The notes under the pieces: generated by a model
Told to the model about the DNA's origin: nothing
Database searches by the model: none
Seen by the model: only the letters and a program-made list of their open reading frames with translations
Translations under genes and position numbers: made by a program
Shown: positions 7,501-57,747 of the stretch, in pieces
How positions within the stretch are numbered: the first letter of the stretch is position 1
Layout of the letters: each line of letters starts with the position of its first letter
Assembly: GCA_025455065.1 (NCBI GenBank)
Contig: JALONG010000002.1
Location: 422-64,421, forward strand
Direction of reading: 5' to 3'
DNA: 64,000 bases
DNA from: Candidatus Kapaibacterium sp.
Lineage (GTDB): Bacteria > Bacteroidota > Ignavibacteria > Kapaibacteriales > UBA4661

Positions 7501-7950
7501 GTTATTGCCGATTTCCCGGAAGCCGCTCCACTACTTGTGTTGGGGGATAAACAACTTATCGAAGAAGTTTTGGAAAATCTGCTGTCCAACGCCGTCAAAT
7601 TTTCGCCGCACGGGAAACGTGTCGTTGTCAGGATATGGGATAGCGGTAATGGGAAAAGGGCGGAGAACGTTGTAGAATCTTCATCTCCTGTTCCTTATCC
7701 TTCATCCGTGCTTCGTATCGAAATTCAGGACGAAGGTGCGGGAATTTCTGCCGAAGATATGCCGCTGTTGTTCAAAAAATTCACCAAACTCGCCACACGT
7801 CCGACAGGCGGCGAACACAGTACCGGTCTGGGACTCAGCATTGTCAAAAAGATGGTGGAAGCAATGAACGGGCGCGTTTGGTGCGAATCGGAATTAGGGA
7901 AAGGCGCGACATTTATTGTGGAATTGCCGCACGGGAGTGATATTTTGTGA
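4516..7950 (+). CDS. Sensor histidine kinase, type A core: beta-propeller, Y_Y_Y, TM, HisKA, HATPase_c. Alternative start at 4564 (MRHSLLILLLLF.., signal peptide).
   Basis: 1144-aa ORF with about 14 Reg_prop repeats, RFRYMLEGFDKEW, EFLGIAAHDLRNPL and GGEHSTGLGLSIVKKMVEAMNGRVWCESELGKGATFIVELP. A 20-aa insertion precedes the G1 box. Confidence 0.9.
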   Translation: MMKRLYLIDMGFSYCAMRHSLLILLLLFVAVAVHSVAAQHLPMFMPPQEQPATRTAFDLHPQKSIAHYIRRTWQMEQGLPQNSAQALCQTRDGYLWIGTEEGLVRFDGVQFTVFDVNNTPALGANTIQALCEDRSGTLWIGTNGGGVCAYKNGVFTSFTSRDGLSNDFVSSIVEDRTASGKTVLWIGTLGGGLNRMEISGNVPVFTAYTTANGLTHNIIFSLIQSHTGALWIGTNGGGVNRYEQGVFSALTTANGLSRNQVRSLCEDRNGALWIGTFGGGLNCYADGKMTVFTTKNGLRHDIVWSLCEDRSGALWIGTFGGGLNRLYNGVMSAYTENNGLSSNLVRSICQDREGALWVGTVGGLNNFADGKFTTYTTKDGLTHDVVRAVLGERSGSGIWVGTFGGGVNVLTNGNVPSVKSIITTRAGGLPTDIIYALLEERNVSGKAGALWIGTNGGGLCRVQGGKTTTFTTKNGLTNDVVFTLLQDKKGVLWIGTVGGGVNRYENGVFTHLTTQEGLPSDNVRALLEDRNGAVWIGTVGGGIAQYFEGKITVYSTNEGLSNNTIRSFHEDETGVLWVGTVGGGLCRFKDGVFRAITTKHGLFNDVIHSIVDDGCGYFWMSCNKGIFRVLKQDLNAFADGTKKSVTSDVFGTLDGMFNAECNSGSPAGIRDARGNLWFATMTGVVTVNPRSNGLGGGMVQPTVIIEAVQADSLRRDVSAPLTVSANAENIEFHYTATSLTAPERTRFRYMLEGFDKEWVDAGKRRVAYYTHLPKGRMYRFCVQASNGQGRWGSGMASVELTLEAAFWETWWFYALCGISLGGLIILAVRMRIGQFQRRAKRLESLVYERTTELRQSNEEIQHHLEVLDKQSQEIESANTVLREKNLQLEALHQEKDEFLGIAAHDLRNPLASIKIAAELIRKARSVPSGEGIVTEQLHKIEILAERMTGIVSNFLDLNALESGAMQVGRQEVALRPLVQEIIEEYRTKAAIKHITVIADFPEAAPLLVLGDKQLIEEVLENLLSNAVKFSPHGKRVVVRIWDSGNGKRAENVVESSSPVPYPSSVLRIEIQDEGAGISAEDMPLLFKKFTKLATRPTGGEHSTGLGLSIVKKMVEAMNGRVWCESELGKGATFIVELPHGSDIL

Positions 7951-12088: not shown

Positions 12089-14449
12089 ATGCAGTGCAAT
12101 ATATTTCATACTATCTTGACGTTAAGTCCAAAACGCCATTACCGACTGTTTCAACGGTTAGTCGTGGTGCGATACTGCCTGCAATGGTGCTTCGCAATGG
12201 TGTGTATCATTTTGCCCTTGTCAGAAATTTTGGCACAAACGCGGATGCCCCCAGAAGCGCTATTGCTCACCGAAGCGTTGATGCTCACCGAACAAGATTT
12301 GGAGCGCGATGCCAATCTTTTGGGTATAACGGGTGTTCGCGGAGCAACGCTCTACACAGCGCCTTGGCGGTATTCTCCGGCGGATTCACCGGATTTTTCT
12401 TCTCCGACATTGAACGACAGCGCTTGGAAACGTCTGCCGTATTCAATGTTTTGTGCTGACACGATGTCTTGGAAGGTGTGGAAAGGTGCGGCATGGTTTC
12501 GTTTGCGGATAAAGGTTTCAAAAGATCTCCACCGCCGTCCGCTTGTGTTGGCTACGCCTTCAGTTGGCGCAATGGATGTGTATTGTGATGGTGTGCTGCT
12601 CGGGACGCTGGGGCGCGTCGGCACAAGCGCCGAAAACGAAATCCTACCAAATTATGCACGAAGTAGTATCCGCATTTTTCCACTGTTACCCGATTCCGCA
12701 CGAGAATACACGATTGCTGTGCGTTACTCATGTTTTAACCATAACAGCTACCGACGCGCTTTTCTAGGCTGGCAACCCGCGCCAATGCTGGGGATGAATA
12801 TGGTCGTAATGGAAGAATCATCATGGCAACTCTATCGAAGCCGCGTCCAATCGGTGTTGGTGGAGTTTGGCGCATACTGCATTGCGCCTTTGTTGGCGTT
12901 TGTGGTGCATTTGCTGTTTTTCTTGCTCTACCGCTCGGAGCGGAGCAATCTTGCCTTGGCGGTATGTAATCTGATGTTGGCAATCGCGGCATTTTTGGGT
13001 TTGTTGTTATTGCATGATGTTGGGCAGACAATTAAGACGATATTTTTTGCGAATATCCTTGTGCGCTCTGCGATAAGTTTTGCATTTTTAGCGTTTGCCT
13101 ATTCGCTGTATTATCTCTTTTTTGAGCCGCCGTTTCCCCGTACAAGGTATGCGATAATTGCGCTCACGGTCGTGGGGCAAATCTTCGCCTTCCGTCCGCT
13201 TTTTGTCGAGCCGAACTCTCGGTTTGCCAATGCGCAAGGTGTTCTGGTGTTGCCGTTATTGTATAGTTTGTATCTTGCTGTTCGCATAATGATGAAAAAG
13301 CCCAAAGGTGCATATACACTGGGGGTTGGAATCATCATTACCTTGATTGCCGTGGCGGTGGAAACCACATTGGAATTGCGCGGAGTAGTTTTTGCGGCAC
13401 GTCCGCCGCTTGTGGGCTTGATGATTCGTATGAGTATCTTTTTGTCATTGCCCATAGCGCTCATGCTGTCTATGGGGCAGCGTATCGCCGCTCAAACACA
13501 AGAGCTGACAGACCAAAATGAACTTCTTGAAAAGCAAGTTGAAGAGCGCACGGCAGAACTCCAAGCTGCAAATGAAGAAGTTCATCGTCAATTAACCATT
13601 TTAGAAGAGCAGTCCAGAAATATTGAGTTGGCAAGTGCCGAATTACAAGAGCGAAACAAGGTTCTCGACCAACTCAATACTGAAAAGGCAGAACTCATCG
13701 GCATTGTGGCGCACGATTTGAAAAATCCGATAAGCGGTGTTCTTGGTTTGACGGAGGTCTTATTAGAAGAAATTCCCAAAGAAGGTTTGGCAGCACAGAT
13801 TATTGAGCAAATTTCCTCGACAACAGCGCGAATGTTACAGTTGGTGAAAAATTTGCTGAATGTGCAGCAGTTCGAGACAGGAGGAATGCGGCTTCAGATG
13901 ACTGAATGTGATATGATGCCTCTTCTCGAATCCATTCTCTCGGCACATCGTCACCATGCCGAAGGGAAAAATATTGCAATCAATGTACTGCCAACATCAA
14001 CAAGTACAGTCGTTTTGGGCGATGAACAAGCGCTCTTGCAGGTGTTCGATAATCTCATTTCCAATGCCGTAAAATATTCCCCGCAGGGAAAAAATGTGTT
14101 CATTCGCCTGAGCAGGCACTCTCAAGACAGCAATAATACTGAAGCCACACACAAAACCAATGACCAGGGGCTAATGACTAATGACCACGCAACTAAGCAC
14201 CAGGCAACTAACCACCGCCTACGCATTGAAATTCAGGATGAAGGAGAAGGCATTACTGCTGAGGATATGAAAAAAATATTTGGTAAATATGCGCGTCTTT
14301 CTGCACGTCCGACCGCCGGAGAAGATAGTACAGGTTTGGGATTGAGCATTGTGAAATCATTGGTGACCGCCATGAATGGTGATGTTTGGTGCGAGTCTCA
14401 GCCACAACAAGGAGCGACGTTCCTAGTGGAATTGCCGTTAGCAGAGTAA
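12089..14449 (+). CDS. 7TMR-DISM sensor histidine kinase (extracellular domain plus 7 TM), type A core, with a 35-aa TNDQ-rich insertion before the G1 box.
   Basis: N-terminal extracellular domain followed by about 7 hydrophobic helices, coiled coil, ELIGIVAHDLKNPI, NAVKYSPQGKN and GEDSTGLGLSIVKSLVTAMNGDVWCES. Insertion SQDSNNTEATHKTNDQGLMTNDHATKHQATNHR. Confidence 0.85.
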   Translation: MQCNIFHTILTLSPKRHYRLFQRLVVVRYCLQWCFAMVCIILPLSEILAQTRMPPEALLLTEALMLTEQDLERDANLLGITGVRGATLYTAPWRYSPADSPDFSSPTLNDSAWKRLPYSMFCADTMSWKVWKGAAWFRLRIKVSKDLHRRPLVLATPSVGAMDVYCDGVLLGTLGRVGTSAENEILPNYARSSIRIFPLLPDSAREYTIAVRYSCFNHNSYRRAFLGWQPAPMLGMNMVVMEESSWQLYRSRVQSVLVEFGAYCIAPLLAFVVHLLFFLLYRSERSNLALAVCNLMLAIAAFLGLLLLHDVGQTIKTIFFANILVRSAISFAFLAFAYSLYYLFFEPPFPRTRYAIIALTVVGQIFAFRPLFVEPNSRFANAQGVLVLPLLYSLYLAVRIMMKKPKGAYTLGVGIIITLIAVAVETTLELRGVVFAARPPLVGLMIRMSIFLSLPIALMLSMGQRIAAQTQELTDQNELLEKQVEERTAELQAANEEVHRQLTILEEQSRNIELASAELQERNKVLDQLNTEKAELIGIVAHDLKNPISGVLGLTEVLLEEIPKEGLAAQIIEQISSTTARMLQLVKNLLNVQQFETGGMRLQMTECDMMPLLESILSAHRHHAEGKNIAINVLPTSTSTVVLGDEQALLQVFDNLISNAVKYSPQGKNVFIRLSRHSQDSNNTEATHKTNDQGLMTNDHATKHQATNHRLRIEIQDEGEGITAEDMKKIFGKYARLSARPTAGEDSTGLGLSIVKSLVTAMNGDVWCESQPQQGATFLVELPLAE
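14122..14220 (+). repeat. In-frame heptamer-like (ACCAATG / ACTAATG) repeat tract encoding a TNDQ-rich insertion inside the HATPase domain.
   Basis: AAAACCAATGACCAGGGGCTAATGACTAATGACCACGCAACTAAGCACCAGGCAACTAACCACC has 7-nt periodicity. Homologous tracts occur in three other HK genes. Confidence 0.55.
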
Positions 14450-14685: not shown

Positions 14686-14922
14686 ATAACTATTCAGGTA
14701 TCGGTAAAAACAGTGAGAGTGGGAGGGACGCGGACTTCAGAGGACTTGAGAGGACGAAGAAGGCTTGAGAAAAAACCTTACGGGGGCGCTCCCATTCATG
14801 CGTCTGTTCCCTGTCGTCTCACATTCTTTGAAGTCATTTTGTCCTTTGAAGTCATTTTGTCCTTTGAAGTCCTCTTGTTCTCTCAAGTCTGCGTTCTTTG
14901 TATTGCATACCTGAATAGTTAC
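14686..14922. mobile_element. MITE-like 237-bp foldback element with 16-bp terminal inverted repeats and flanking 8-bp direct repeats (TCGGAATC).
   Basis: Left terminus ATAACTATTCAGGTAT (14686..14701) matches the reverse complement of the right terminus ATACCTGAATAGTTAC (14907..14922) at 15 of 16 positions. TCGGAATC occurs at 14678..14685 and 14923..14930. Internally there are GGACTTCAGA-type 10-mers (14732..14771), their inverse (14866..14889), and an 18-bp tandem repeat TTGAAGTCATTTTGTCCT x2.3 (14828..14875). Confidence 0.45.
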
Positions 14923-14949: not shown

Positions 14950-17097
14950 ATGGTTTACCTTTTTAAACAATATCTCCGCAACCGACAAACCAAGCACCAA
15001 TGCGCTTCAGCCTATTGGCGAGGTGTTTGTTGTCGTCTTGTTTGGAAGGCAGGTTTGGTGTTGTTGTTATTGCAGGTGTTTCGACAATTTCCAGTAACAG
15101 CGCAATCAAATGTGGCACAACAGTACCGCTTTCAAGGCAAATTAACGCTTGCACAACAAGAAGCGGAAAAAGCATTGCTGACACGATTAGAACGTGCGCG
15201 AGACACCGTGCGTGTAGAGATTTTGGATTCGATTGCTTGGGTGTATCGCGGAACGGATTTTGGTCGTGCAATGTATTACGCCCAACAAGCTGCGCAGGAA
15301 GTTGCACGCTTGGGTTTTCCTCGCGTACGAGCAGAAAATAACAATTACATCGGCATTATTCATCGGAATTTAGGGAACTATCCCAAAGCAATGCAATCTT
15401 TTGATGAAGCACGACGTATTGCCGAGCAGTATGGTTACAGACGGGAATTGGGCTATGCGCTGAATAATATCGGCGAGATTTACCGTTTTCAAGAGAAATA
15501 TGCCGAAGCACGGGATTATGTTTTCAGAGCGCAAAAAATTTTTCTCCAACTCCGCGATACAAGCGGTTTGTACTATTCAGCGATTCGTCTGGGGGAAATA
15601 GCCCTGAGTCTTCAGAGTTACCCACAAGGATTGGCATACTTTCAAGAGGCAGAGCGGTATTCCCTTTTAACGCATAACAAGGTTTGGGAAGCAGGTGTGC
15701 TGAATCGTCTTGGACAGGTGCTACGTTTGCAGAAGCAGTACCAATCAGCACTGGAAGTTTTTTTGCGAGCCTTAGCGATTGCACGGACATTAGAACACGA
15801 TGAAGATGAACAATCACATATTTTGATAGAAATTGGGAAAACACATATTGCCGTAGGAAGTACGGATTCAGCAACTCTATACTTGAAACAGGGATTAGCC
15901 ATAGCAGAAGCAATCGGTATCAAGCAACGTGTCTTAGAATCCTCAAAAAACCTAGCGGAAATTTTTACCCGACAGCGCAGTTACGAAGAAGCATTGCGGT
16001 ATCGTACCTTACAAATGACAATGAAAGACTCCCTGTTTTCTGAATTAGGGCGGCGAGAAATCGAAAAAATTAGCGCACGGTACGAGCTTGAAAAGCAGCA
16101 AAATGATATTGCTGCTTTGAGTGCAGCTCAAAAACAGGAGCGTATTATCAGCACCGGCTTAGTGATTGGTGTGATGTTGCTGCTGGCTGTTGCGTTACTG
16201 CTGTATCGAAATGTTCGAGCCGAACAACGTGCAAACCAAGAAATAATGCGCCAGCAGGAGGTTTTGGAGCATCAAGCGTTGGAAATTGAAACGACCAACA
16301 CGACGCTGCAAGAACAAAATGAGGAACTTGCTGCGCTGAACACCGAAAAAACAGAATTGATGAACATTGTGGCACATGATTTGAAAAACCCGATTGGAGC
16401 AATCCATGGGCTTGCAGACTTGATTACAAGCGGTATGGTACAGGAAAAACAAGTACAGGAAACGGCAGAGCATATCGCGATGACAGCAGAACGAATGTTG
16501 CGGCTGGTGACGAATGTTCTTGATAGTTCAAAGTTTGAGGCAGGGATGACCCAACTTGAGGCTGTGGAATTTGACATCATTCCCGTTATTGAACTGACGT
16601 GTTCTCAATACCAAGCAGCAGCCGAAGCAAAAGGCATTTCGCTTCATGTTGAATCTCATGGTGAATCGGCTCTCGCATTGGCTAATGAACAAGCGCTCAT
16701 ACAGGTTGCTGACAATATCATTTCCAATGCCGTGAAATATTCTCCGCAGGGAAAAAAAGTGTGGGTGAGAATTTGGAGCAAGAATGAAGAGTATTCGCCA
16801 ATGCTCAATGGTGATTCGTTCAATAACCAAATGACCAACGACCAAAAAACAAATGGTAATGTCGTCCGCATAGAAGTTGTGGATGAGGGACCCGGTATTT
16901 CGGAAGAGGATATGAAAAAACTCTTTGGTAAATTTGCACGCCTCTCTGCCCGTCCCACAGGTGGTGAGCATAGTACGGGTTTAGGGTTGAATATCGTAAA
17001 AATGCTGGTCGAATTGATGAACGGGCGCGTGTGGTGTGAATCGAAACTTGGGTACGGCGCAACATTTATCGTGGAATTGCCGACGAATGTCTCGTAG
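14950..17097 (+). CDS. TPR-repeat sensor histidine kinase, type A core. The likely start at 14950 (MVYLF..LVLLLLQVF..AQS, signal-like) lies just downstream of a foldback element; the ORF track start at 14713 reads through repeats.
   Basis: TPR-like repeats, TM segment (LVIGVMLLLAVALLLY), coiled coil, ELMNIVAHDLKNPI and GGEHSTGLGLNIVKMLVELMNGRVWCESKLGYGATFIVELP. Short insertion NNQMTNDQKTNG. Confidence 0.8.
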   Translation: MVYLFKQYLRNRQTKHQCASAYWRGVCCRLVWKAGLVLLLLQVFRQFPVTAQSNVAQQYRFQGKLTLAQQEAEKALLTRLERARDTVRVEILDSIAWVYRGTDFGRAMYYAQQAAQEVARLGFPRVRAENNNYIGIIHRNLGNYPKAMQSFDEARRIAEQYGYRRELGYALNNIGEIYRFQEKYAEARDYVFRAQKIFLQLRDTSGLYYSAIRLGEIALSLQSYPQGLAYFQEAERYSLLTHNKVWEAGVLNRLGQVLRLQKQYQSALEVFLRALAIARTLEHDEDEQSHILIEIGKTHIAVGSTDSATLYLKQGLAIAEAIGIKQRVLESSKNLAEIFTRQRSYEEALRYRTLQMTMKDSLFSELGRREIEKISARYELEKQQNDIAALSAAQKQERIISTGLVIGVMLLLAVALLLYRNVRAEQRANQEIMRQQEVLEHQALEIETTNTTLQEQNEELAALNTEKTELMNIVAHDLKNPIGAIHGLADLITSGMVQEKQVQETAEHIAMTAERMLRLVTNVLDSSKFEAGMTQLEAVEFDIIPVIELTCSQYQAAAEAKGISLHVESHGESALALANEQALIQVADNIISNAVKYSPQGKKVWVRIWSKNEEYSPMLNGDSFNNQMTNDQKTNGNVVRIEVVDEGPGISEEDMKKLFGKFARLSARPTGGEHSTGLGLNIVKMLVELMNGRVWCESKLGYGATFIVELPTNVS

Positions 17098-24736: not shown

Positions 24737-26491
24737 TTATCCTTTCAGGTTTTCCTCCTCCAAAAGCATCGCACTTTCAGCGTTTACCGTTTTTTCCGTT
24801 GCAACAAACTCCGCAATAAATGTCGCTCCTTTGCCTAATTCCGATTCACACCAAACGCGCCCGTTCATTGCTTCGACCATTTTTTTGACAATACTCAAAC
24901 CCAGACCGGTACTGTGTTCGCCGCCTGTCGGTCGTGCCGACAACCGTGCAAATTTCCCAAACAGTTTTTTCATATCCTCCGGCGAAATACCGGGACCTTC
25001 GTCTTGAACTTCAACGCGAATTTTTTGGTCATTGGTCATTAGCGATTGGTCATTAGTCTTGTGTGACGCTTCAGTATTCGTACCGCTTACATTATCACCT
25101 AACGACTGACCAATGACCAATGGCGAATGACCGCCAATCCTCACAAACACATTCTTCCCTTGAGGCGAGTATTTAACGGCATTAGAAACAAGGTTATCCA
25201 AAACCTGCCCGACTGCCATGCTATCACCCATGATATAGGCTTCTGAGGCTGTACGGTTGAAATGGAGAGTAATAGATTTTGCGACGGCTTGCGGCTGATA
25301 AAAATCAATAATACGTTCTAAAATAGGCGCGAGATTGACTGCTTGTGCGGTAAATTGCCGCCCGCCTCGTTCCAGTGCATTGACATCCAGAAGATTGCGA
25401 ATAAGTTCAAACATTTTCACTGAAGAATTGCGCATCATCTTTGCCATTTCTTTGATGTCGCTTTCGTCAAGTTTTTCATTTACCAGCATATCGGACATCC
25501 CTTGTATTGCGCTCAAAGGGTTTTTCAAATCGTGCGCTGCAATGCCTAAAAACTCATCTTTTTCTTGGCTCAATTCCTCCAACACCGCATTTTTACTCTG
25601 TATTTCTTCGTTTGCCTGAGCCAGCTCTAATGCGCGTTGTTCGGTTTCTTCTTTGGCAATAGTCAAACTGTGGTTCAAACTTGCAAGTTCGAGATTTGCT
25701 GCCTGCATTTCTTCATTGCTTGCTTCCAGTGTGTCGAGCATTTCATTGAACGTCGTTGTTAAAACGCCAACTTCACTCCGCAAGGCGCTTCTGTGCTGTG
25801 CAGGGGCGCGTTGCATAAGGTCTCCTGCGCTTACCCGTTTTGCAATGCGGGATAAATTCTGGATTGGGCGGGCAATGCGCTGAACAAGAAAAAATGCTGC
25901 AATCGCACAGACAATAGCTGCAACAAGACTGCCCAGCAAAATACCGATGCGGCTTCGCAAAATCGTTTCGTTCATTTCATTAGTATTCAGTACCACAATC
26001 ACTTCGCCCAAAAGTTCCGGGTTGTCGTCGGTGCGGACAGGCGCAATTACCGGAACAATCGCTATGGCACGACCTTTCTCGTCAAAAGCAACATTTATGC
26101 TGTCGGAGCGAGTGAATAAACCGCGAGAACGAAGATCGGGAGAGGCTTTGGAGTAATTTCGTGTGTAAGCAGTGTCGCCATTGCGATTTTTAATAATAAT
26201 GAGTTCAAAGGACTGTAAGCGCTCAATTCCCTGCATGGATTTTTGCAAAAATTCGCGGTCATCAAATGCTAACCCCCCACCACTGCCTGCTGCGGCAAGC
26301 TCACCGATTGCACGTGCTTGGCTCAACGTAAACTCCTCCCCGCTTCGGCGCTGTTGGAGCGACGAAGTAAGGACATTCAACCCTGTTACAAGGATGATAA
26401 TCATCAAAACTAACTGCGTGATTTGTCCGCCAATAGACGAGCGTAATGCCGTAAAGCGTGATAAAACCTGCTTCGGTGGTGCAGAATTCAT
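24737..26491 (-). CDS. Sensor histidine kinase, type A core, with a CHASE8-like periplasmic sensor, HAMP and coiled coil. Contains the TNDQ insertion.
   Basis: TM, periplasmic domain homologous to the adenylate cyclase sensor, TM, HAMP, EFLGIAAHDLKNPL, NAVKYSPQGKN and GGEHSTGLGLSIVKKMVEAMNGRVWCESELGKGATFIAEF. Insertion GTNTEASHKTNDQSLMTNDQ. Confidence 0.85.
   Translation of the reverse strand: MNSAPPKQVLSRFTALRSSIGGQITQLVLMIIILVTGLNVLTSSLQQRRSGEEFTLSQARAIGELAAAGSGGGLAFDDREFLQKSMQGIERLQSFELIIIKNRNGDTAYTRNYSKASPDLRSRGLFTRSDSINVAFDEKGRAIAIVPVIAPVRTDDNPELLGEVIVVLNTNEMNETILRSRIGILLGSLVAAIVCAIAAFFLVQRIARPIQNLSRIAKRVSAGDLMQRAPAQHRSALRSEVGVLTTTFNEMLDTLEASNEEMQAANLELASLNHSLTIAKEETEQRALELAQANEEIQSKNAVLEELSQEKDEFLGIAAHDLKNPLSAIQGMSDMLVNEKLDESDIKEMAKMMRNSSVKMFELIRNLLDVNALERGGRQFTAQAVNLAPILERIIDFYQPQAVAKSITLHFNRTASEAYIMGDSMAVGQVLDNLVSNAVKYSPQGKNVFVRIGGHSPLVIGQSLGDNVSGTNTEASHKTNDQSLMTNDQKIRVEVQDEGPGISPEDMKKLFGKFARLSARPTGGEHSTGLGLSIVKKMVEAMNGRVWCESELGKGATFIAEFVATEKTVNAESAMLLEEENLKG
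25027..25140 (-). repeat. Heptamer-repeat tract plus an inverted copy, forming a roughly 110-bp imperfect palindrome inside a coding sequence (HK 24737..26491).
   Basis: On the + strand, TTGGTCATTGGTCATTAGCGATTGGTCATTAGTC (left) and GACTGACCAATGACCAATGGCGAATGACCGCC (right) are approximately reverse-complementary. They encode TNDQSLMTNDQ and HSPLVIGQS on the gene strand. Confidence 0.55.
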
Positions 26492-26696: not shown

Positions 26697-28145
26697 TCAC
26701 AGGGAATTGAGAAACGCCATTAGTGCATCGCGGTCACCTTTAGGCAGGCGGCGCACGTAATCACGCGAAGCAAGTGCCTCGCCGCCGTGCCAGAGAATTG
26801 CTTCCATGATGTTTCGTGCGCGTCCGTCGTGGAGCAGGAACGTGTGACCATTCACTGCTGCCGTCAAACCCAAGCCCCAAAGCGGTGTTGTGCGCCATTC
26901 GCGCCCATTGGCGAGGAAATCAGGGCGGTTGTCTGCCAAACCTTCGCCCATGTCGTGCAAGAGCATATCGGTATAAGCGAAAATCGTTTGATTCGAGACT
27001 TCGGGAACGCCTTGCAAATTGCCAGTTTGCATAGAAGGCGTGTGGCAAGCGGAGCATTTTGCTTGGTCGAAGAGAAGTTTTCCGCGCTGTACGCTTGCAT
27101 CATTCACATTGCGCCGTGCCGGAACGCCCAGAGTGCGCGTGTAATGGACAACATCGTTTAGTATGCGGTCGTTCACTTCGGGAGGATGTGCGGCGATTGC
27201 CTGCATCTGTCCTGCGGAGCTTTCTGTTGGGAAGAGTGATGTTGTTACGCCCATGTCGCCATTGTATGCACCGGCGTTTTGCTGACGAAGCGAGGGTTGA
27301 TTTGCTTTCCAGCCAAAACGCCCAAGCGTCACGCGCTGCGCCTGCACATCCCACACGCGATTGACTTTGCCGGAAATGCCGTCATTATTGCGGTCGTTTA
27401 CGTCCTCACCTGCAACGATGGTTTCTTCGGGAATTGCTTCCAACAAGCCCAAGCCAAAGACGGGTGAAGCAATACGCGGCGAAATCTGCACTCCGGCAGG
27501 GAAGGGTAAATACGTGTTCTGGATTTGGTAACGCGGGGAGCGAAGTGAGTAAGTGCCGCCGTCGGTGAATGTGCCGGGCTGCTCGGTGTAGGCAATCGAA
27601 AATTTGCCTTCGGGCTGAACTCCTGCTACGGCTTGGTCTTGCAACTGACCGCCGAAACCCGTGATTCCAAGAGGTTCTCCGTGTGCATCCGTTCCCATTT
27701 GACTAAGCCTGAGCAGCAAAGAATTGAAGCCTTTGTCGTCAAGCGACGGCTTTCCGCGCCCGTCCCCCACGTGGCAGCCTTCGCAAGAAACGTGATGAAA
27801 TATCGGTCCTAATCCGCCCGGATTCGTCGCTGTGGGGCGGGGCGCGTGTTCTGCGGCAAATGCTTCGTCTCCCGCATCATGCCTACGAAGACTTTCGGCA
27901 TTAAGGTTTGGTGCGGCTTGCGAGAACGCATTTTCATCGGTCAAAAAAACGGTTGTGGCTCCGCCTGCCAAGCGTTCATCAACGGCGCGGGGAGGGCGTT
28001 GGCGGACGGCGGCGAGGGATTCCCCTGAGAGTTCTTCGGTTTGGACGGGTAGAATTTCTTCGGTCGAACAGCCTGTAAATACTGACCCCGCGAAGATAGC
28101 GGCGCAGATGAGACCTGCTTTGCGCCTTTGCATAAACGTTTTCAT
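26697..28145 (-). CDS. Di-heme c-type cytochrome of the DUF1111 family (putative di-haem oxidoreductase/peroxidase-like), lipoprotein.
   Basis: Lipoprotein signal (..AGSVFTGCS) and two CxxCH motifs (CEGCH, CSACH) spaced as in DUF1111 proteins; about 480 aa mature protein. Confidence 0.65.
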   Translation of the reverse strand: MKTFMQRRKAGLICAAIFAGSVFTGCSTEEILPVQTEELSGESLAAVRQRPPRAVDERLAGGATTVFLTDENAFSQAAPNLNAESLRRHDAGDEAFAAEHAPRPTATNPGGLGPIFHHVSCEGCHVGDGRGKPSLDDKGFNSLLLRLSQMGTDAHGEPLGITGFGGQLQDQAVAGVQPEGKFSIAYTEQPGTFTDGGTYSLRSPRYQIQNTYLPFPAGVQISPRIASPVFGLGLLEAIPEETIVAGEDVNDRNNDGISGKVNRVWDVQAQRVTLGRFGWKANQPSLRQQNAGAYNGDMGVTTSLFPTESSAGQMQAIAAHPPEVNDRILNDVVHYTRTLGVPARRNVNDASVQRGKLLFDQAKCSACHTPSMQTGNLQGVPEVSNQTIFAYTDMLLHDMGEGLADNRPDFLANGREWRTTPLWGLGLTAAVNGHTFLLHDGRARNIMEAILWHGGEALASRDYVRRLPKGDRDALMAFLNSL

Positions 28146-28254
28146 AACGTTTCTCCAAAAAATAGTGAACAAAAATAGAGCGTTGCTTGCTGTCATTGCT
28201 CTTTGCTAACGATGCAATTTGCAATAAACACCGCTTCAATCCTTGTTCCTGGAA

Positions 28255-28346
28255 GTCATGTTCTTCTGTTCTCATTGGTCATTTTTTTGCCCTCCAAATC
28301 GTCATGTTTCTCTGTGCCAAAACGTCATACTGTTTTCTGCCAAAAG
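28255..28346. repeat. Four tandem degenerate 23-bp repeats, each beginning GTCAT, upstream of the propeller HK gene at 28428.
   Basis: gtcatgttcttctgttctcattg / gtcatttttttgccctccaaatc / gtcatgtttctctgtgccaaaac / gtcatactgttttctgccaaaag, with period 23. Confidence 0.5.
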
Positions 28347-28427
28347 AGAAACTTTTTCACCACACAACCGTAGATGACAACGGACGCTGATAATCTCTTG
28401 TTGTTCACCCATTGTTCCGTGTCGTGT

Positions 28428-31400
28428 ATGCAACGTTTTGTTCACGCTGTGCGGCTTTTTCCGCAGATAGTACGCTTATTCCGTTGCGCTTCAATCGGCA
28501 TTGATGCGCACGTGGGGTTGTTGCCGTTGATACTCGTTTTGCTGCCGTTGTATTGTGTTGTTGCCGCTCCCGAAACGCCTGTATTTCCTAAACGCGACCT
28601 CAAATTTGACCATTACAATCTTGCTGAAGGATTATCGCAAAGCAGCGTATTTGCTGTTCTCCAAGACCGCTACGGCTTTTTGTGGATAGGCACACAAGAC
28701 GGTCTGAACCGTTACGACGGCTATCGTTTCACGCATTATCGTCATAATCCCGACAATCCCCACTCACTCGCGTCAAATTTTATCAGTGCGCTCTACGAAG
28801 ACCGTTCGGGAACATTATGGGTGGGGACGCAAGAAGGCGGTCTCCATGTTTTTGACCGCACAACCGAAGGTTTTACGCGGTATCGCACAAATCCTGCCGA
28901 GCCCTTCAGCACAAAATTTATTGGAAGCAATTTTATCCGCGGCATCACCGAAGATGCGTCAGGAACGCTCTGGTTGGCTACGCTTGGTGCTGTCAGTACG
29001 TTCAACAAAAATACAGGAGAATGGCGGCATATCACGTCGAATACAAAGAATCCCGATGACGCAAAAAGCCTCAGTTCGCCGGCAACGTGCGGTATTCTGC
29101 GGGATAACGAGGGAATGATGTGGATAGCGACTTTGGGAGGCGGTCTCAACCGCATTAACCCGCAAACCGGCATTGTTACTCGCATCAATGACCATTCGGT
29201 GGGCTTTCGTATTTCCGGGCGCAATGTAACGGCGCTTTATCAAGACAATACAGGAAATATCTGGGTTGGAACGGACAACGGTGTGGATATTTTGCGGCTT
29301 CGTGAACAGAAATCTGAATATCTGCCATTGAACGAAACGATGAAAACAGGCGGTGTAGAAAGACCTGTCAGAGCATTTCAACAAGAGAGTGATTCCGTGA
29401 TGTGGATTGGCGTGGAATTTGGCGGTTTGACGGTGCTGAATATGCGCACGGGTAAGCAATCAAGCTACCGTCACGAACAAACCCGACTCTCAAGCCTCAG
29501 CAACGATTTTCTTTGGTGCATTTACCGCGACAAACAAGGTGCGTTCTGGGTTGGCACGCAAGGCGGCGGTGTGAATGTCTTCAATCCATTTGCAAGGAAA
29601 TTTACGTCCTTCAGGCAGGAAATCAATAATCCTTTCAGTCTGAACAATAATTTTGTTCGCGCAATGTCCGAAGACGGCAAAGGCACTCTTTGGGTTGGAA
29701 CCGAAGGTGGCGGTTTGAGCCGATATGACCGCCTCACGCAGCGCTTCACTGCTTATACCTTTGATAAAAAAGCGCGAAGTGGCATCAGCCATAATATCGT
29801 TCGTGCGATTGTCTATGACGCAAAGCGTGATGCACTCTGGGTAGGCACAGGCGGCGGATTGAACAAACTCGACCTGAAAAGCGGCGTGTTTACGGTCTTT
29901 CGCGCTGATAAGAACAATCCCCACGCAATTTCGGATGATGCCGTGCGGACGCTCTTGCTTGACGATGACGGTACACTGTGGGTAGGAACGGACAACGGTG
30001 GTGTGAATCATTTGAATCCCGAAACAAAGCGTTTTCGTGCGTATCAACATAACCCCAATGACGCTGCAAGCCTGAGTTTTAATGCCGTACTGTCTTTGCA
30101 CAAAGACCGCTTGGGAACGCTTTGGGTGGGAACGCTCAGGGGATTGAACAAACTGAACGCCGCAAATGGCACATTTACGGTCTTTGCTGCTGATAATACC
30201 AAAGCAACTATGCTGCAAAGTGGAAACATTCGTGCTATTCATGAAGACCGTAAAGGGCGATTCTGGATTGCAACGTGGGGCGGCGGGCTGCACCAATTCG
30301 ACCGCCAAAGCGGACATTTTGAGGTGTTCCGAGAAAAAGACGGGTTGCCGAATGATGCGGTGTACGGGATTTTGGAAGACAAATCGGGACATCTTTGGCT
30401 GACCACAAATAATGGACTTGCTCGCTTTAATCCTGACGAGCGCTCATTTCGCACCTATACCGTGGAAGACGGTTTGCAAAGTAACGAATTTAACGGAGGG
30501 GCGTATTTTCAAGGTGCTTCGGGTAGAATGTATGTCGGAGGTGTAAACGGACTAAGTGAATTTTGCCCCGAAACGATTACCGACAATGATGTGCCGCCTG
30601 CGGTTGTAATAACGGGCTTCAAAAAGTTCAATAAGCCCGTACAGTTGTGGAAAGACCTTAATGCCGAGCCGGAAATTACGTTGCCGCATGACGATAATTT
30701 TTTCTCAATCGAATTTGCCGCGCTGAGTTTTGCCAACGCAAAGAAAAATCGGTATCTCTACAAAATGGACGGCTTCGATAGGCAATGGATTGATGCCGGA
30801 ACAAGCAAGGAAGCGGCATACACGAACTTAGACCCGGGAAGCTATGTTTTTCGCGTTAAAGCCTGCAACAACGACGGTGTGTGGAATGAGGAAGGCGCAC
30901 GGCTGAGAATCAGCATTCTGCCGCCTTGGTGGATGTCGCTGTGGTTTCGAGCGGGAATAGTGCTGGGGTTTGTCGGAACAGGAGGGGCGTGGTTTTGGAT
31001 GCGCCTGCGTAATGAGCGGCGTCGCAGAGCAGAGTTAGAGCGCTTGGTGCATATTCGCACCGAGCAGTTGGAAACAAGCAACCATGAGCTTTCGCAGGCA
31101 AACGAAGAAATTCAGACCCATATCCAAACCCTCAGCGAACAGGCATGGGAAATTGCCACGATGAATACGCAATTACAATCGCGCAACCAAGAATTAGAGC
31201 GTTTGAACACGGAAAAAAATGAATTTTTGGGCATTGCTGCACATGATTTGAAAAACCCGCTTTCGAGTATTGTGCTGATGACAGAAATGCTCCAAATGCA
31301 GCATAAAACCTTAGCGTCAGAACAAGTACAGGAAAAACTCGGGCGGATTGAATCAACGGCTATGCGGATGCGGGATATCATCACCAATTTGCTGGATGTT

Positions 31401-32024
31401 AATGCCCTAGAATCCGGCGCACTCACGCTTTATCCGGCTGAGTTTGATGCCAAAGACCTTGTGCGGGATGTTGTTGAAGAATACCAAGAACGTGCAACAG
31501 AAAAAAATATCACGCTGCACCTCGACATTGCCGACGCGCCCGAACATGGGATATATGCGGACTATGCAAAAACGCACGAAGTTTTGGAAAATCTTGTTTC
31601 CAATGCCGTAAAATACTCGCCGACGGGGAAGAAGGTCAATGTGCGTGTGGTCGTTGGTCATTCGTCAGACGATAATGTCAGAAACACCAATACTGAAGCG
31701 GCACACAGGACTAATGACCAACGGCTAATGACCAATGACCAATCAACCAATGACCAATTCACCAAGCCCCAAGCAACCAACAATTACCTTCGTATTGAAG
31801 TCGCTGATGAAGGTCCGGGAATTTCGGATGAGGATATGAAGCGGCTTTTTGGTAAATTCGCCCGTCTGACTGCACAGCCGACAGGAGGCGAAGATTCTAC
31901 GGGCTTGGGACTGAGTATTGTGAAAAAAATCGTAGAAGCAATGAACGGCAGGGTTTGGTGTGAATCTGTTCTTGGAGCAGGAGCCACGTTTATTGTCGAG
32001 TTGCCTCGGAGCGGCGCAGAATAG
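28428..32024 (+). CDS. Sensor histidine kinase, type A core: beta-propeller, Y_Y_Y, TM, HisKA, HATPase_c, with a long TNDQ-rich insertion. ORF track start at 28374.
   Basis: Many Reg_prop repeats, Y_Y_Y (RYLYKMDGFDRQW), EFLGIAAHDLKNPL and GGEDSTGLGLSIVKKIVEAMNGRVWCESVLGAGATFIVELP. Insertion NTNTEAAHRTNDQRLMTNDQSTNDQFTKPQATNN. Confidence 0.85.
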   Translation: MQRFVHAVRLFPQIVRLFRCASIGIDAHVGLLPLILVLLPLYCVVAAPETPVFPKRDLKFDHYNLAEGLSQSSVFAVLQDRYGFLWIGTQDGLNRYDGYRFTHYRHNPDNPHSLASNFISALYEDRSGTLWVGTQEGGLHVFDRTTEGFTRYRTNPAEPFSTKFIGSNFIRGITEDASGTLWLATLGAVSTFNKNTGEWRHITSNTKNPDDAKSLSSPATCGILRDNEGMMWIATLGGGLNRINPQTGIVTRINDHSVGFRISGRNVTALYQDNTGNIWVGTDNGVDILRLREQKSEYLPLNETMKTGGVERPVRAFQQESDSVMWIGVEFGGLTVLNMRTGKQSSYRHEQTRLSSLSNDFLWCIYRDKQGAFWVGTQGGGVNVFNPFARKFTSFRQEINNPFSLNNNFVRAMSEDGKGTLWVGTEGGGLSRYDRLTQRFTAYTFDKKARSGISHNIVRAIVYDAKRDALWVGTGGGLNKLDLKSGVFTVFRADKNNPHAISDDAVRTLLLDDDGTLWVGTDNGGVNHLNPETKRFRAYQHNPNDAASLSFNAVLSLHKDRLGTLWVGTLRGLNKLNAANGTFTVFAADNTKATMLQSGNIRAIHEDRKGRFWIATWGGGLHQFDRQSGHFEVFREKDGLPNDAVYGILEDKSGHLWLTTNNGLARFNPDERSFRTYTVEDGLQSNEFNGGAYFQGASGRMYVGGVNGLSEFCPETITDNDVPPAVVITGFKKFNKPVQLWKDLNAEPEITLPHDDNFFSIEFAALSFANAKKNRYLYKMDGFDRQWIDAGTSKEAAYTNLDPGSYVFRVKACNNDGVWNEEGARLRISILPPWWMSLWFRAGIVLGFVGTGGAWFWMRLRNERRRRAELERLVHIRTEQLETSNHELSQANEEIQTHIQTLSEQAWEIATMNTQLQSRNQELERLNTEKNEFLGIAAHDLKNPLSSIVLMTEMLQMQHKTLASEQVQEKLGRIESTAMRMRDIITNLLDVNALESGALTLYPAEFDAKDLVRDVVEEYQERATEKNITLHLDIADAPEHGIYADYAKTHEVLENLVSNAVKYSPTGKKVNVRVVVGHSSDDNVRNTNTEAAHRTNDQRLMTNDQSTNDQFTKPQATNNYLRIEVADEGPGISDEDMKRLFGKFARLTAQPTGGEDSTGLGLSIVKKIVEAMNGRVWCESVLGAGATFIVELPRSGAE
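31690..31795 (+). repeat. In-frame GACCAAT heptamer-like repeat tract (about 9 units with 7/8-nt period) encoding a TNDQ-rich insertion in the HATPase domain.
   Basis: GACTAATGACCAACGGCTAATGACCAATGACCAATCAACCAATGACCAATTCACCAAGCCCCAAGCAACCAAC. Single-base deviations avoid in-frame TGA codons. Confidence 0.55.
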
Positions 32025-32147
32025 CTGATTTTTTGTCAAGAGGGAAGTCGCAAACTTTTCTTGCATTTTCATCAATGCCCCGTTATTGTGAACTACATCC
32101 GCGCTATTATTCCCGTTTTGATAGTTCGTCATTTCACTGCATCCTTG

Positions 32148-34230
32148 ATGCTGTGCGGGTTTCTCGTTTTTGGTGCTGCGGGACAAGCAACGGTGCTGTT
32201 TGCAGAGGCAAAAACATTTGAGGCAAAAATTGCCGAAGCGCGAAAACAAGGGAATGATACGCTCTTGGTGCTTGCCTTGGCGGATTGCGCCTATTCTCAT
32301 TATCTTTCCAATCCCAAGCAAGGAATTGCCGAAGCGGATGAAGCCATAGCATTGGCGGAGCGGGTGAAATTCCCGCGTGGTGCTGCAAAGGCATTTGTCT
32401 ATAAAGGTTGGTGCCATTATGTTCTTGCGGAATATGCAGAAGCAATTCGTGCATACTTGCAAGCGGAAACTCTTGCGGAGCAAAATGGCGATTCGTCTAG
32501 TCTAGGGCTTGCATTGCAGTACAAGGCGAATCTTTACCGTCGTGTGTATAAAGACGTAGAGCGCTCTTTCCAAGATCATGCTAAAGCCGCACGATTACTG
32601 GAAGGAAAAGTTGATAGCGCAGACATGATGCTGTTATGGCAAGATTTGGGTATTGATGAAGGAGCGCGGCTGCACACAAGCGAGAGTGTGCGCTATCTTG
32701 AGCAAACAGTGAGGTATTTCTTCGAGAAACGGGATACGGTGAATTGGCTTGTTAGCTATGCCTATATCGGAGAAGCGTACTTGCTTGCGGAGGAATATGA
32801 GCAAGCGAGACCATATTTTGAGGAAGTGCTGCGTATTGCCGAAAAAACGAACTCCTTCCGTGCCAAAGCCATGACACAGAGCCGTTTAGCGAGGATTTAC
32901 CTTTCGGAACGCCGATACTCGGAAGCGGCAATTTCCGCAAAGGAGGCTGTGGAAGCGTCGCAACTCGCAGGGTCGAAAGATTTTTTGGTGGACAGTTACG
33001 GCGCGTTAGCTGAGGCACTACGGGCTTTGCAGCGTTTTGAAGAGGCTTCCGATTACCAAGTTTTGCTCACAAATTTGCAAGATTCACTCTTTGCCGATAA
33101 AATGCGGAACTCGCTGACGGTGCAGCAAGCAAACTACGAAGCAGAAAAAGCACAAAGCAAAATTCAAGACTTGGAATTACAACAACAGGCTCAACGGCGC
33201 ATCGGATATGCTTTGGCTATTGTCGTTATTGTTGTTGTCTTGGCAGCACTTCGCATTTGGCGCTCTGCACGAGCCGAACATCGTGCATTGGTGCAGGTGG
33301 AAGAAAAAAATCGGAATATTTCGCAGCAACGCGAAGAATTGGAGCAGTTAAACGCACAACTGCTCACCGCAAACGAGGAAATCCAGCGCCAACTCACCAT
33401 TCAAGCCGAACAATCGCAGCAGTTGGAACTATCGCAAACGGAGATTCAAGCGGTCAGCGATGATTTGCAGGAAGCAAACCTCGAATTGAGGGCTTCCAAT
33501 GAACTACTCGCGCTGGAACGAGAGGCTTTGGAGCGCGTGAATACGGAGTTAGCGCTGAAAAATACGGCACTGTCGGAAGCAGAAGAGTTTCGGTTGAATA
33601 TGCTCAGTATCGTTTCGCATGACCTCAAAAACCCGATAAATTCTATCTCCGGCTTAGTCAGTGTTTTGCTGGATAATCCTGAGTTGGGAGAACGTGAACG
33701 TGAGATATTGCGCTATGTTCACGAATCAGGGGAACGAATGAGCGCACTTGTGCGGGATTTACTGGATACTGCTGCCAGAAGTGCCGGAAAAATCACGCTA
33801 CAATTAGCCCCGACGGAATTAAAGGACATCACCGCCGGAGTGCTTGCGCATCATATTCATTCGGCGGCGCGGAAAAAACAGCAGTTTATTTTTAATCCAC
33901 ATGAGGAAATTTGGGTAACAGGAGATGTGCGTCGTTTGTTTCAAGTGTTCGACAATTTGGTCAGTAATGCTCTCAAATACTCGCCATATGGCAGTTCGAT
34001 TTGGATTGGCATAGGACGAAAAGATTCTTCAGCGCTTTGGAGCGTCCGCGATGAAGGAGCGGGTTTCACGGAAGAAGACAAAACAAAGGCTTTCGGCTTT
34101 TTTCAAAAACTTTCTGCCGAGCCTACGGGCAGATTGTGGAACTGCACGGGGGAACAATTCGCATCGAAAGCGAGGCGGGGCAAGGTGCAACGATGATTGT
34201 CGAAATGCCGTTATTGCTGCCTTCGTAAGA
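32148..34230 (+). CDS. TPR-repeat sensor histidine kinase, type C core, with a frameshifting deletion in the G2-box region near 34135; possible pseudogene. The ORF track ends at 34196 in the wrong frame, and the conserved C-terminus QIVELHGGTIRIESEAGQGATMIVEMP continues in another frame to 34230.
   Basis: TPR-like repeats, TM segment (IGYALAIVVIVVVLAAL), coiled coil, H-box LNMLSIVSHDLKNPI, NALKYSP and FFQKLSAEPTG. The reading frame then shifts exactly where the GxGLGL box should be. Confidence 0.7.
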
Positions 34231-57100: not shown

Positions 57101-57747
57101 AGATGATTGATTTTATCACGAAATTGCTGGATGTAAACGCGCTGGAAACGGGAAAAATGCCCGTCAGCCTTGTTCCTTGCGATATTCGCGTAGCAACAGA
57201 AGCCATTATGGAAAATTATCACCCCCGCGCTGTTGCAAAAGGCATAACATTTAGCTATGAAGCCGCTTCCGAACCGATTGCTCTGGCTGATGCCGTGCTG
57301 TTGCCACAGGTATTGGATAATTTGCTTTCCAATGCACTCAAGTATTCGCCAAATGACAAAGTGATTGCAGTGCGCATCACCACTCGCAGCGCGAATAATG
57401 TTGAAAATACAAACGATGGAAAAACTGTCCGTTTGGAAGTCCAAGACCAAGGACCGGGCTTAACAGAGGAAGATAAACGACGATTATTTCAAAAATTCGC
57501 TCGACTTTCGGCGCGTCCCACCGGAGGCGAACACAGCACAGGTCTTGGATTAAGCATTGTGAAAAAAATGGTGGAAGCGATGCACGGCAAGGTTTGGTGC
57601 GAGTCTGAAATTGGCGTAGGCTCAACGTTTGTGGTTGAATTACCTGCGTTTCAATCAGCTAATCAGTCTGTCAATCATTTCGGTAATACGTACATCGGTT
57701 ATGCAGCACTCATGAACAGCGAACAGCATAAATACACGCTTCATTAA
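54112..57747 (+). CDS. Sensor histidine kinase, type A core: beta-propeller, Y_Y_Y, TM, HisKA, HATPase_c.
   Basis: 1211 aa with many Reg_prop repeats, YRYILEGFDKEW, DLLAIVSHDLRNPL and GGEHSTGLGLSIVKKMVEAMHGKVWCESEIGVGSTFVVELP. Confidence 0.9.
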   Translation: MSMFVISVITFFSRCMHVLVIVISLLLLYAEPASGQGAYSPQIAFKHLTIDNGLPQNTVFSIAQDHHGFMWFGTQDGLCRYDGYEMKVFRHDRKKPYSLLNNYVLSMLIDSKQRLWVGTAGGGLSLYNEKNNHFTPFVHNPHVAQTLSDNRIYALCEDRTGKLWVGTERGGINLFNPETGKARAFLHNPSDIHSIPANRVAAIVKDAAKTLWIATVGGGLCYFNPTDSTFIRVRFEANDAMATHGIVKTQDRAEKAGKPLLAIDNNSVSALYADSEGYLWVGTHGAGVLRVNVRHNTWERVVSNFSGKQLRPENDVFSIVGDQNGRIWIGLEGGGVRIYDRLGGIILSCVHDPLNAPSLSDNVVRRMYCDNAGTMWIGTATGGVNKYASGAHRFSVYRHEPLNPGSLAADVVRAFCEDAAGNIWVGAVDGGLNRFLRKEGTFERHQYAPLHDKALGSEDVWALAAAPDGELWVGTQNGLFAYHPTTKTRTVYRHSPSEAGSITNNIIRALHFDRDGVLWVGTNLGGLCRFDAASRSFKSYRFLFNDSLTTTGAGTVSDPIRDILHASDGTLWVGTVNLGVLAFDKERGVIKASYRHNEAAPEGQKGLSNNTIRYLHEDKRGNIWAGTLDGLNCISPQTGAIRVYTEDDGLPNEVIYGILEDNGGFFWLTTNKGLVRFHPEKRSFKTYTKQDGLQSNEFNGRAVMRGSDGWFYMGGIGGFNTFHPDSIRDNGRIPPVVLTDIKVFGRSLELDTTITERTTLTLPYTHSNCTFSFVALNFVGAEKNQYRYILEGFDKEWVEAGTRREAIYTNLEPGDYTFRVQGSNNDGIWNMEGAVLTITITPPWWGTWYFRLGAVAGVIAFGVFTYRRRIFVYRENERRLENLVQMRTQVLTETNNRLGAANEEIQRQMMMQHEQSHELQKAYMQLDEANDILITRNHELMQLNKEKNDLLAIVSHDLRNPLVSTLLAIKLLQKRYPNLSDEEKFAYLAKIQSASEQMIDFITKLLDVNALETGKMPVSLVPCDIRVATEAIMENYHPRAVAKGITFSYEAASEPIALADAVLLPQVLDNLLSNALKYSPNDKVIAVRITTRSANNVENTNDGKTVRLEVQDQGPGLTEEDKRRLFQKFARLSARPTGGEHSTGLGLSIVKKMVEAMHGKVWCESEIGVGSTFVVELPAFQSANQSVNHFGNTYIGYAALMNSEQHKYTLH

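Follow-up and report, generated by a model that had tools for sequence, protein, structure and literature searches.

Here we describe an in-frame insert, built of heptanucleotide repeats, in the ATP-binding domain of four histidine kinases (K1–K4) encoded in a 64-kb stretch of Candidatus Kapaibacterium sp. DNA (contig JALONG010000002.1; 'the window' below means the whole 64,000 nucleotides analysed). The explanation that we favour, with somewhat better than even confidence, is a tolerated and probably harmless heptamer-repeat insert whose unit is of cyanobacterial type and which evolves by slippage and by conversion among kinase paralogues. The original prediction, made from the letters of the window, had reported related TNDQ-rich peptides in these genes; all four lie in the genes it named, they are homologous and GACCAAT/GACTAAT-built, and the tract from which it started, at 14122–14220, covers the K1 insert. 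What it described was the right arm of a larger structure, the inverted left arm having been overlooked: the insert is a quasi-palindrome made of a left arm (TTGGTCA)n, a short core and a right arm (TGACCAA)n (Table 1).

The window holds 15 histidine-kinase genes (HisKA/HATPase_c) spanning positions 1–60074, and ten of them combine a near-identical transmitter module with sensor modules that are unrelated to one another (Reg_prop/Y_Y_Y, TPR, HAMP, PAS, 7TMR-DISM, or none recognized). Pfam HisKA and HATPase_c domains were found in all ten paralogues, which identifies the hosts as HisKA-type sensor kinases; no response-regulator gene was noticed among the annotated open reading frames (ORFs) of the window. 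Tandem kinase arrays are also present at related loci. In an alignment of the ten paralogues, the TNDQ-rich peptides of K1–K4 come after the N-box (SNAVKYSP) and before the G1 box (DEGPGI), in a variable segment flanked on one side by the post-N-box strand (SNAVKYSPxGKxVxVR) and on the other by the strand entering G1 (VRVEVQDEGPGI). The turn between these strands is minimal in two paralogues and occupied by other loops in four, in agreement with the earlier statement that the remaining paralogues carry different inserts, or none, at this loop. Long non-heptamer loops occupy this turn in two paralogues besides K1–K4, at 7588–7746 (DSGNGKRAENVVESSSPVPYPSS) and 59709–59867 (NRQNIDSMGLSEQPRTQSLSPITS); neither folds more stably than a synonymous-codon null.

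The core of the insert has an S-D-[DE]-N-S-P-H-S-T-like consensus, with an NTEAxH[KR] variant in the window genome. Reverse-complement heptamer matches lie upstream of the right arm in the K3 and K4 loops (25107–25132 and 31648–31667), and in K4 GTTGGTCATTCGTC agrees with the reverse complement of GACTAATGACCAAC (31709–31722) at 13 of 14 bases. K2, previously regarded as carrying a short version, has instead a full but decayed copy, the left arm of which is identical to the HSPLVIGQSL segment of K3 at ~24 of 30 nt (by eye in the DNA alignment).

Table 1. Kinase genes, parts of the insert and related features. Positions are those of the window unless a locus is named.
Feature	Position	Strand	Remark
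K1 histidine kinase gene	12089..14449	+	HisKA + HATPase_c; no Pfam-recognized sensor domain
K2 histidine kinase gene	14950..17097	+	TPR sensor
K3 histidine kinase gene	24737..26491	-	HAMP
K4 histidine kinase gene	28428..32024	+	Reg_prop/Y_Y_Y
K1 insert	14117..14218	+	HSQDSNNTEATHKTNDQGLMTNDHATKHQATNHR; core NTEATHK, left arm lost
K1 right-arm heptamers	~14156-14188	+	followed by decayed 15-nt repeat, 14184-14216
K2 insert	16792..16857	+	decayed palindrome
K2 left arm	16792-16821	+	YSPMLNGDSF
K2 right arm	16828-16857	+	QMTNDQKTNG
K3 left arm	25100..25132	-	(TTGGTCA)-type heptamers on coding strand, read GHSPLVIGQSL
K3 central core	25058..25099	-	GDNVSGTNTEASHK; genome-specific variant common to K1 and K4
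K3 right arm	25025..25057	-	(TGACCAA)-type heptamers, read TNDQSLMTNDQ; pairs with left arm
K4 left arm	31653..31667	+	GTTGGTCATTCGTCA (VGHSS)
K4 central core	31668..31709	+	DDNVRNTNTEAAHR
K4 right arm and tail	31710..31784	+	TNDQRLMTNDQSTNDQFTKPQATNN; includes strain-polymorphic 15-nt (7+8) unit ACCAATGACCAATCA
Candidate relic in fifth paralogue	57391..57417	+	ANNVENTND (cf. K4 DDNVRNTNT); tentative, weak alignment
Second insert family	L003 10394-10549; L067 10385-10567		proteins P0015, P0017, P0088, P0161, P0236

Tandem Repeats Finder recovered period-7 arrays at 14171–14185, 25025–25058, 25107–25132 and 31709–31758 and 15-nt composite periods at 14184–14216 and 31731–31780, with GACCAAT, TGACCAA and TTGGTCA as consensus units; the arrays comprise two to seven imperfect units (72–78% matches). 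Across the window, GACCAATGACCAAT with at most two mismatches occurs 10 times against 0.54 expected (none of 100 shuffles reached 10), and ATGACYAATGAC three times against 0.01 expected. Every two-unit match of the window falls inside the four kinase loops.

A perfect (GACCAAT)n array translates as PMTNDQ followed by a stop in every frame, TGA being reached after at most six codons, and perfect runs on the sense arm are therefore limited to about 18 nt. Real right-arm tracts carry TCA, TCG, TTC, CGG or AAA in place of TGA, which bears out the earlier remark that the base changes avoid the stop; the right arm can thus persist only in PMTNDQ blocks with a substituted codon between them, giving the 15-nt (7+8) composite units. 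The left arm, (TTGGTCA)n, meets no stop in any of the three frames, each of which gives LVIGHWS, and its actual reading is (G)HSS-LVIGHSS. Codon usage was compared between 12 inserts and the window genome: Thr is encoded by ACC/ACT in 85% of cases in the inserts versus 33% in that genome (p = 2e-15), Asp by GAC in 85% versus 45% (p = 3e-7), Gly by GGT in 68% versus 30% (p = 1e-4) and Ser by TCG/TCA in 62% versus 35% (p = 7e-6). This heptamer-locked codon choice exceeds what the peptide needs, and it is the DNA repeat rather than the peptide that is kept or regenerated.

In an AlphaFold model of the K3 transmitter (mean predicted local distance difference test score, pLDDT, of 84) the N-box helix (residues 117–134) is followed by a strand (140–146), the insert (147–182; pLDDT ~50) and the strand leading into G1 (183–190). 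The best Foldseek match of the model is HK853 (E = 2e-20), with a Bergerat fold, and sequence alignments with HK853 and SrrB break precisely at the insert, a position occupied by a short turn in the solved structures. The insert is thus predicted to form the disordered tip of the 140–146/183–190 β-hairpin, at the far strand end from the G1 aspartate, and the fold would place it at a distance from the nucleotide pocket. The encoded peptide, 20–50 residues long, appears to be a disordered, tolerated surface loop with no demonstrated catalytic role. Modelling had been proposed as a check on a surface loop beside the ATP lid; it returned the disordered loop, at a hairpin tip, but set it apart from the lid (~203–223), which is a separate element after G1.

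Comparison of tract lengths across strains, likewise proposed at the outset, revealed variation. A second strain (L002, VYMD01000874.1) aligns with window positions 27020–34129 at 97.9% identity, with 135 mismatches over 7125 aligned bases, and the sole gap in this alignment stems from one additional STNDQ unit of 15 nt, which the second strain has in its K4 right arm. The K1 and K2 tract lengths are unchanged between the window and that strain; in K1, five of the 17 amino-acid differences between the strains fall within the 37-residue loop of a 786-residue protein. Orthologues differ more widely. Among the K3 orthologues, the syntenic one at 71% identity carries an insert that is different and longer, with 63-residue spacing, another at 68% identity has a minimal turn, and those at 39–47% identity have no insert; among TPR kinases, P0245, P0266 and P0267 carry the insert, whereas P0268, their 92%-identical orthologue, shows only a minimal turn. 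The right arm changes in length by composite in-frame steps of 15 nt, and the left arm by steps of 21 nt.

The insert is not limited to the three or four paralogues of the original prediction: some 38 Kapabacteria kinases have the three-part structure at this turn, with the frame unchanged. Most homologues of the transmitter module are labelled Kapabacteria or Kapaibacteriota, and carriers among them came in batches of 11, then 15 more, then 8 more, from independent assemblies (JGI, ENA, NCBI and Logan), with REC, TPR, 7TMR-DISM, Y_Y_Y or HAMP N-terminal modules. An alignment of the loops gives the consensus xHSSLVIGHSS-D[DE]N-..-TN-xPMTNDQ-xTND, and some copies have clean 21-nt (GHSSLVI) and 15-nt (PMTNA) periodicity.

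Had the motif been a common genome-wide repeat, it would have had to be regarded as a generic element. We scanned the window and 12 loci of carrier organisms (L083–L085 and L088–L096; ~207 kb altogether) for heptamer dimers with at most one mismatch, and every dimer falls in the N-box-to-G1 loop. What look like two exceptions in L093 are contig ends in truncated kinases, the translations of which run into the loop; both ends of this 14.8-kb contig (1–33 and 14732–14795) lie within heptamer tracts of truncated kinase genes. The tracts break short-read assemblies and yield truncated kinase gene calls. Outside the carriers, 1.3 Mb around kinase genes of other taxa held only four isolated, chance-like dimers, and the heptamer insert is absent from the 80 best kinase loci of GTDB genomes, representatives that sample the carriers poorly. 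The core DNA pattern had no match among genomes taken one per species and a single match in a metagenome collection, namely the second strain. A word-index search of proteins with only the peptide of the insert gave no candidates. A loop-only profile searched against 1.84 billion representative proteins matched 11 kinases across both arms; it also matched short ORFs consisting purely of LVIGHWS or PMTND-type repeats, which look like translated pure arrays. The heptamer is a known repeat elsewhere, yet in the carrier organisms it is essentially a feature of kinase loops.

How alike the inserts are within a genome suggests exchange between paralogues. Outside the homogenized tract the flanks of K1, K3 and K4 share only 0.34–0.53 identity at third codon positions (0.48–0.74 nucleotide identity); their transmitter modules are old duplicates, with kinase domains saturated at synonymous sites. 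Their inserts share the core variant NTEAxH[KR]TNDQxLMTNDQ. K3 and K4, which have the most similar inserts among the window kinases, are identical at 62 of 72 nt in the insert core and at 20 of 25 third positions (counted by hand in the codon listing; binomial p = 0.005), including all 18 from AAT ACT onward. Genome L093 has another variant, SPLA[IV]GH.SNDN.N, common to its orthologues of K3 and K4 (47 of 55 nt). Inserts of paralogues within a genome are thus more alike than inserts of orthologues, which is the signature of concerted evolution. K3 and K4 are divergent neighbours separated by a single DHOR/cytochrome c gene (26697–28196), an arrangement conserved in L093; their inserts form an inverted pair ~6.5 kb apart, which would favour intrachromosomal conversion. 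Downstream of the insert P0245 and P0268 show 12 differences, and 10 of these fall within the first 26 residues, a cluster of the kind that a short conversion tract would leave. The earlier description of a hypervariable, slippage-prone loop therefore holds for the variation in length between strains and orthologues, but slippage alone fails, for the paralogues evolve in concert.

We propose that a permissive turn of a kinase came to carry, fixed in frame, a cyanobacterial-type heptamer array together with its inverted counterpart. Replication slippage, assisted by the hairpin potential that most copies show in their long arm-to-arm stems, would then expand, contract or delete the tract in composite in-frame steps, hairpin-prone DNA presumably being easily deleted, and short-tract gene conversion among the numerous, often adjacent kinase paralogues would spread and homogenize the insert. 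Selection would remove only variants that are frameshifted or contain stops. We infer all four elements of this account, namely slippage, conversion, neutrality of the peptide and the historical link to cyanobacteria.

Several points weigh against this explanation. The loop profile also matched, across both arms, two proteins that are not kinases: P0246, a GGDEF diguanylate-cyclase-like protein with the insert in a disordered linker (residues 372–402), and P0261, a 2139-residue non-ribosomal peptide synthetase (NRPS) with the insert at residues 78–116, just before the adenylation-domain motif LAYIIYTSGTTGKPK. Some route besides conversion from kinase to kinase must therefore exist. The scatter of carriers among kinases with seven-residue turns, in a neighbour-joining tree of the module without the loop, speaks for the explanation, but the topology has no bootstrap support. 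The confinement to kinases is established only for ~207 kb of kinase-rich DNA, and the baseline of the codon comparison comes from the window genome only. An insert kept with a recognizable core across many species and paralogues could mean function. The sharing of variants within genomes points to gene conversion as a pattern in sequences, not as an observed event; strong selection at the nucleotide level could also give high identity between inserts, but not the sharing among paralogues over orthologues.

The strongest of the rivals, which we nonetheless judge unlikely, is an element resembling a miniature inverted-repeat transposable element (MITE) or a repetitive extragenic palindromic (REP) sequence, with heptamer terminal inverted repeats, that inserts with a target preference and independently into each kinase gene. 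The inverted-repeat architecture, the scatter of carriers on the kinase tree, presence and absence between 92%-identical orthologues, the copies in the GGDEF protein and the NRPS, and a second palindromic insert at the same loop (EGG.MK...SSFL; GGAAGGATGAA/TTCATCCTT) are all what such an element would produce. But no consistent target-site duplication or fixed termini emerged from 12 inspected junctions, the ~207 kb hold no copy outside kinase loops, arm length varies in repeat units and the ends are not fixed, and the substitutions flanking the insert in P0245/P0268 fit a conversion tract better than a clean insertion. The sole nearby Y1 transposase (L095, 271–816) is flanked by its own, unrelated GC-rich REPs.

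Both the second insert and the transposase merit a brief description. The former constitutes an unrelated family (K.EGG.MKQ...SSFL) at the same β-hairpin turn in other Kapabacteria kinases; it is palindromic in DNA, KEGG being the reverse complement of SSFL, and its fold z-scores are -2.3 and -3.6. A second palindromic family at this position suggests that the turn collects hairpin-forming inserts in general. The latter is an IS200-like gene on the minus strand (Pfam Y1_Tnp, 28.9 bits) within L095 150–1290, and the GC-rich 30-nt repeat CCGCCCGACGGCGAAGAAGCCGCCGGACGG flanks it in nine or more copies that include both orientations; this is a typical cluster of a REP-associated tyrosine transposase (RAYT) with its REPs, and a RAYT/REP link to the insert was rejected because these repeats differ from the heptamer.

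Somewhat less probable again is a selected protein loop, that is, a flexible, length-tunable spacer or docking segment, rich in Ser/His and Thr/Asn/Asp/Gln, that is varied adaptively. Retention in many paralogues and species with the consensus HSSLVIGHSS-DEN-..-PMTNDQ, the invariably open frame and the difference in length between strains would all be expected of it. Opposed to it are the low pLDDT (~50) with no predicted structure, close orthologues without the insert, the concentration of amino-acid changes in the K1 loop (5/17 in 37/786 residues), codons that follow the DNA heptamer and not merely the peptide, and the location of the site at a distal hairpin tip.

A role at the level of nucleic acid, in which a hairpin or a factor-bound heptamer array acts on the kinase genes by way of transcript stability, translation or recombination, strikes us as improbable. 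Long arm-to-arm stems are predicted in most copies of the insert. That of K3 folds at -22.8 kcal/mol as DNA (z = -4.0) and at -43 kcal/mol as RNA, and against randomization of synonymous codons the hairpins of K3 (z = -2.8) and L089 (z = -2.05) are significant; heptamer-compatible codons are retained beyond the needs of the peptide, and a regulatory function has been proposed for the identical heptamer in Nostoc. The other 10 of the 12 inserts, however, do not exceed the synonymous null, K1 has lost its left arm entirely, variants in one arm are not consistently compensated in the other, orthologues exist without the insert, and no Rfam family matched in the window at gathering thresholds. With two of 12 inserts significant and arm variants uncompensated, we do not claim a selected or conserved RNA or DNA structure. 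An invertible segment between the arms was likewise considered and rejected: the reverse complement of the K3 core is open in frame (by eye), for which the chance expectation is ~44%, and no inverted core was seen among the homologues.

No better are the prospects of a repeat-binding or recombination factor that reads the heptamer, a unit employed close to start codons by cyanobacteria, and drives targeted copying of loop cassettes between kinases or, by way of single-unit slippage, reversible truncation of individual sensors. If a factor did read the heptamer, the cell would possess a built-in means of diversifying or switching a very large kinase repertoire, and simple repeats would be linked to the regulation or diversification of two-component systems.

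A single ancient insertion followed by vertical descent, with independent decay and loss but no exchange, is very improbable. The loop, the frame and the overall architecture are alike in all copies, and K1 and K2 are decayed, as it would predict; but inserts of paralogues are far more similar than their synonymous sites, variants are specific to genomes rather than to orthologues, and the more distant K3 orthologues all have no insert. Least credible of all is a contingency switch in which a frameshift, caused by gain or loss of a single 7-nt unit, cuts the kinase short ahead of the G1 and G2 boxes and reversibly turns it off: the unit is not a multiple of three, TGA follows immediately in any shifted frame, copy number varies between strains and the database kinases P0249 and P0257 end inside the tract (possibly at contig ends), but the tracts are short (two to five units) and imperfect, the only polymorphism observed is in frame (15 nt), no frameshifted allele is documented and the tendency of contigs to break at the tracts explains the truncated gene calls.

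Two further features of the window may be recorded here. Directly upstream of the K2 start (14950), an 18-nt tandem repeat, CTTTGAAGTCATTTTGTC, is present in 3.6 copies (89% matches) at 14826–14889 and encodes FEVILS repeats in a longer alternative ORF that begins at 14713. A 300-aa ORF at 61654–62556 has a match to DUF2887 (E = 9e-54), a family that we take to be found mostly in cyanobacteria, and this ORF may bear on gene exchange with them.

The insert shows that a type of repeat that is intergenic in cyanobacteria can live in frame within a conserved catalytic domain and, if the explanation that we favour is right, can spread through a family of dozens of paralogues without destroying them. 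The insert offers a natural test of the unstructured sequence that is tolerated at the β-hairpin tip of a kinase ATP-binding domain, which is useful for engineering insertion sites, and a clean case of short-tract concerted evolution between otherwise saturated paralogues. There is also a practical warning, in that the tracts break metagenome assemblies and truncate Kapabacteria gene calls. These points should interest those who study bacterial repeats, two-component systems and the evolution of gene families.

No description of an insert of this kind was found in the literature searched, and its closest known counterparts each share part of its character. We take the heptamer repeats of Nostoc PCC 7120 to belong to the STRR class. 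Eight copies of GAC(C/T)AAT precede recO in that strain, and repeats lie near at least 13 genes (bioRxiv 10.1101/2022.06.06.494920), and heptamer repeats of another unit are shared among Cyanobacteria, Beggiatoaceae and Bacteroidetes (PMC4679880). The unit of the insert is identical to the cyanobacterial one (GACCAAT/GACTAAT, equivalent to TGACCAA, the complement of TTGGTCA), is arranged head to tail and has the same translations, LVIGHWS and PMTNDQ-type short ORFs existing in public data. The cyanobacterial arrays, however, are long, near-perfect, intergenic and dispersed, whereas those of the Kapabacteria insert are short, interrupted and set as inverted pairs, lie in frame in a catalytic domain and are confined to one loop of one gene family in a non-cyanobacterial lineage. 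The intergenic, dispersed placement of STRR-like repeats is not seen here, all dimers of the ~207 kb lying in kinase loops.

Other relatives are coding elements. Rickettsia palindromic elements (RPEs) are palindromic repeat DNA in frame in coding genes, adding a peptide compatible with the fold (PMC10969869); they and other intragenic MITEs share with the insert a palindromic body and an in-frame peptide addition, but RPEs are ~150 bp long and spread over dozens of unrelated genes, whereas the insert consists of variable heptamer arrays, without fixed ends or target duplication, almost only in kinase loops. Palindromic amphipathic repeat coding elements (PARCELs) are also coding repeats with DNA dyad symmetry, a patchy distribution and intragenomic shuffling (PMC2996958). 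Dyad symmetry and patchiness recur in the insert; PARCELs, in contrast, are structured amphipathic domains of 25 residues in membrane or surface proteins of unknown function, and are neither heptamer-based nor located in an enzyme domain. Contingency loci resemble the insert in having a 7-nt unit within an ORF, a copy number that varies between strains and only some copy numbers in frame, and the O-acetyltransferase NeuO is reportedly phase-variable through heptanucleotide repeats. Their tracts are long and perfect and act as on/off switches, whereas those of Kapabacteria are short and imperfect and change by in-frame composite steps, with no off alleles seen. Concerted evolution by gene conversion, finally, is matched by the sharing of variants among paralogues of one genome without a match in orthologues; unlike in the usual cases, the homogenized tract comprises the insert and ~25 codons, and the rest of the kinase domain is synonymously saturated. 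On present evidence this is not a new type of system. The insert has neither the genome-wide dispersal, the fixed ends nor the on/off switching of these relatives, and it behaves like an intragenic simple-sequence repeat combined with an in-frame palindrome of the RPE kind.

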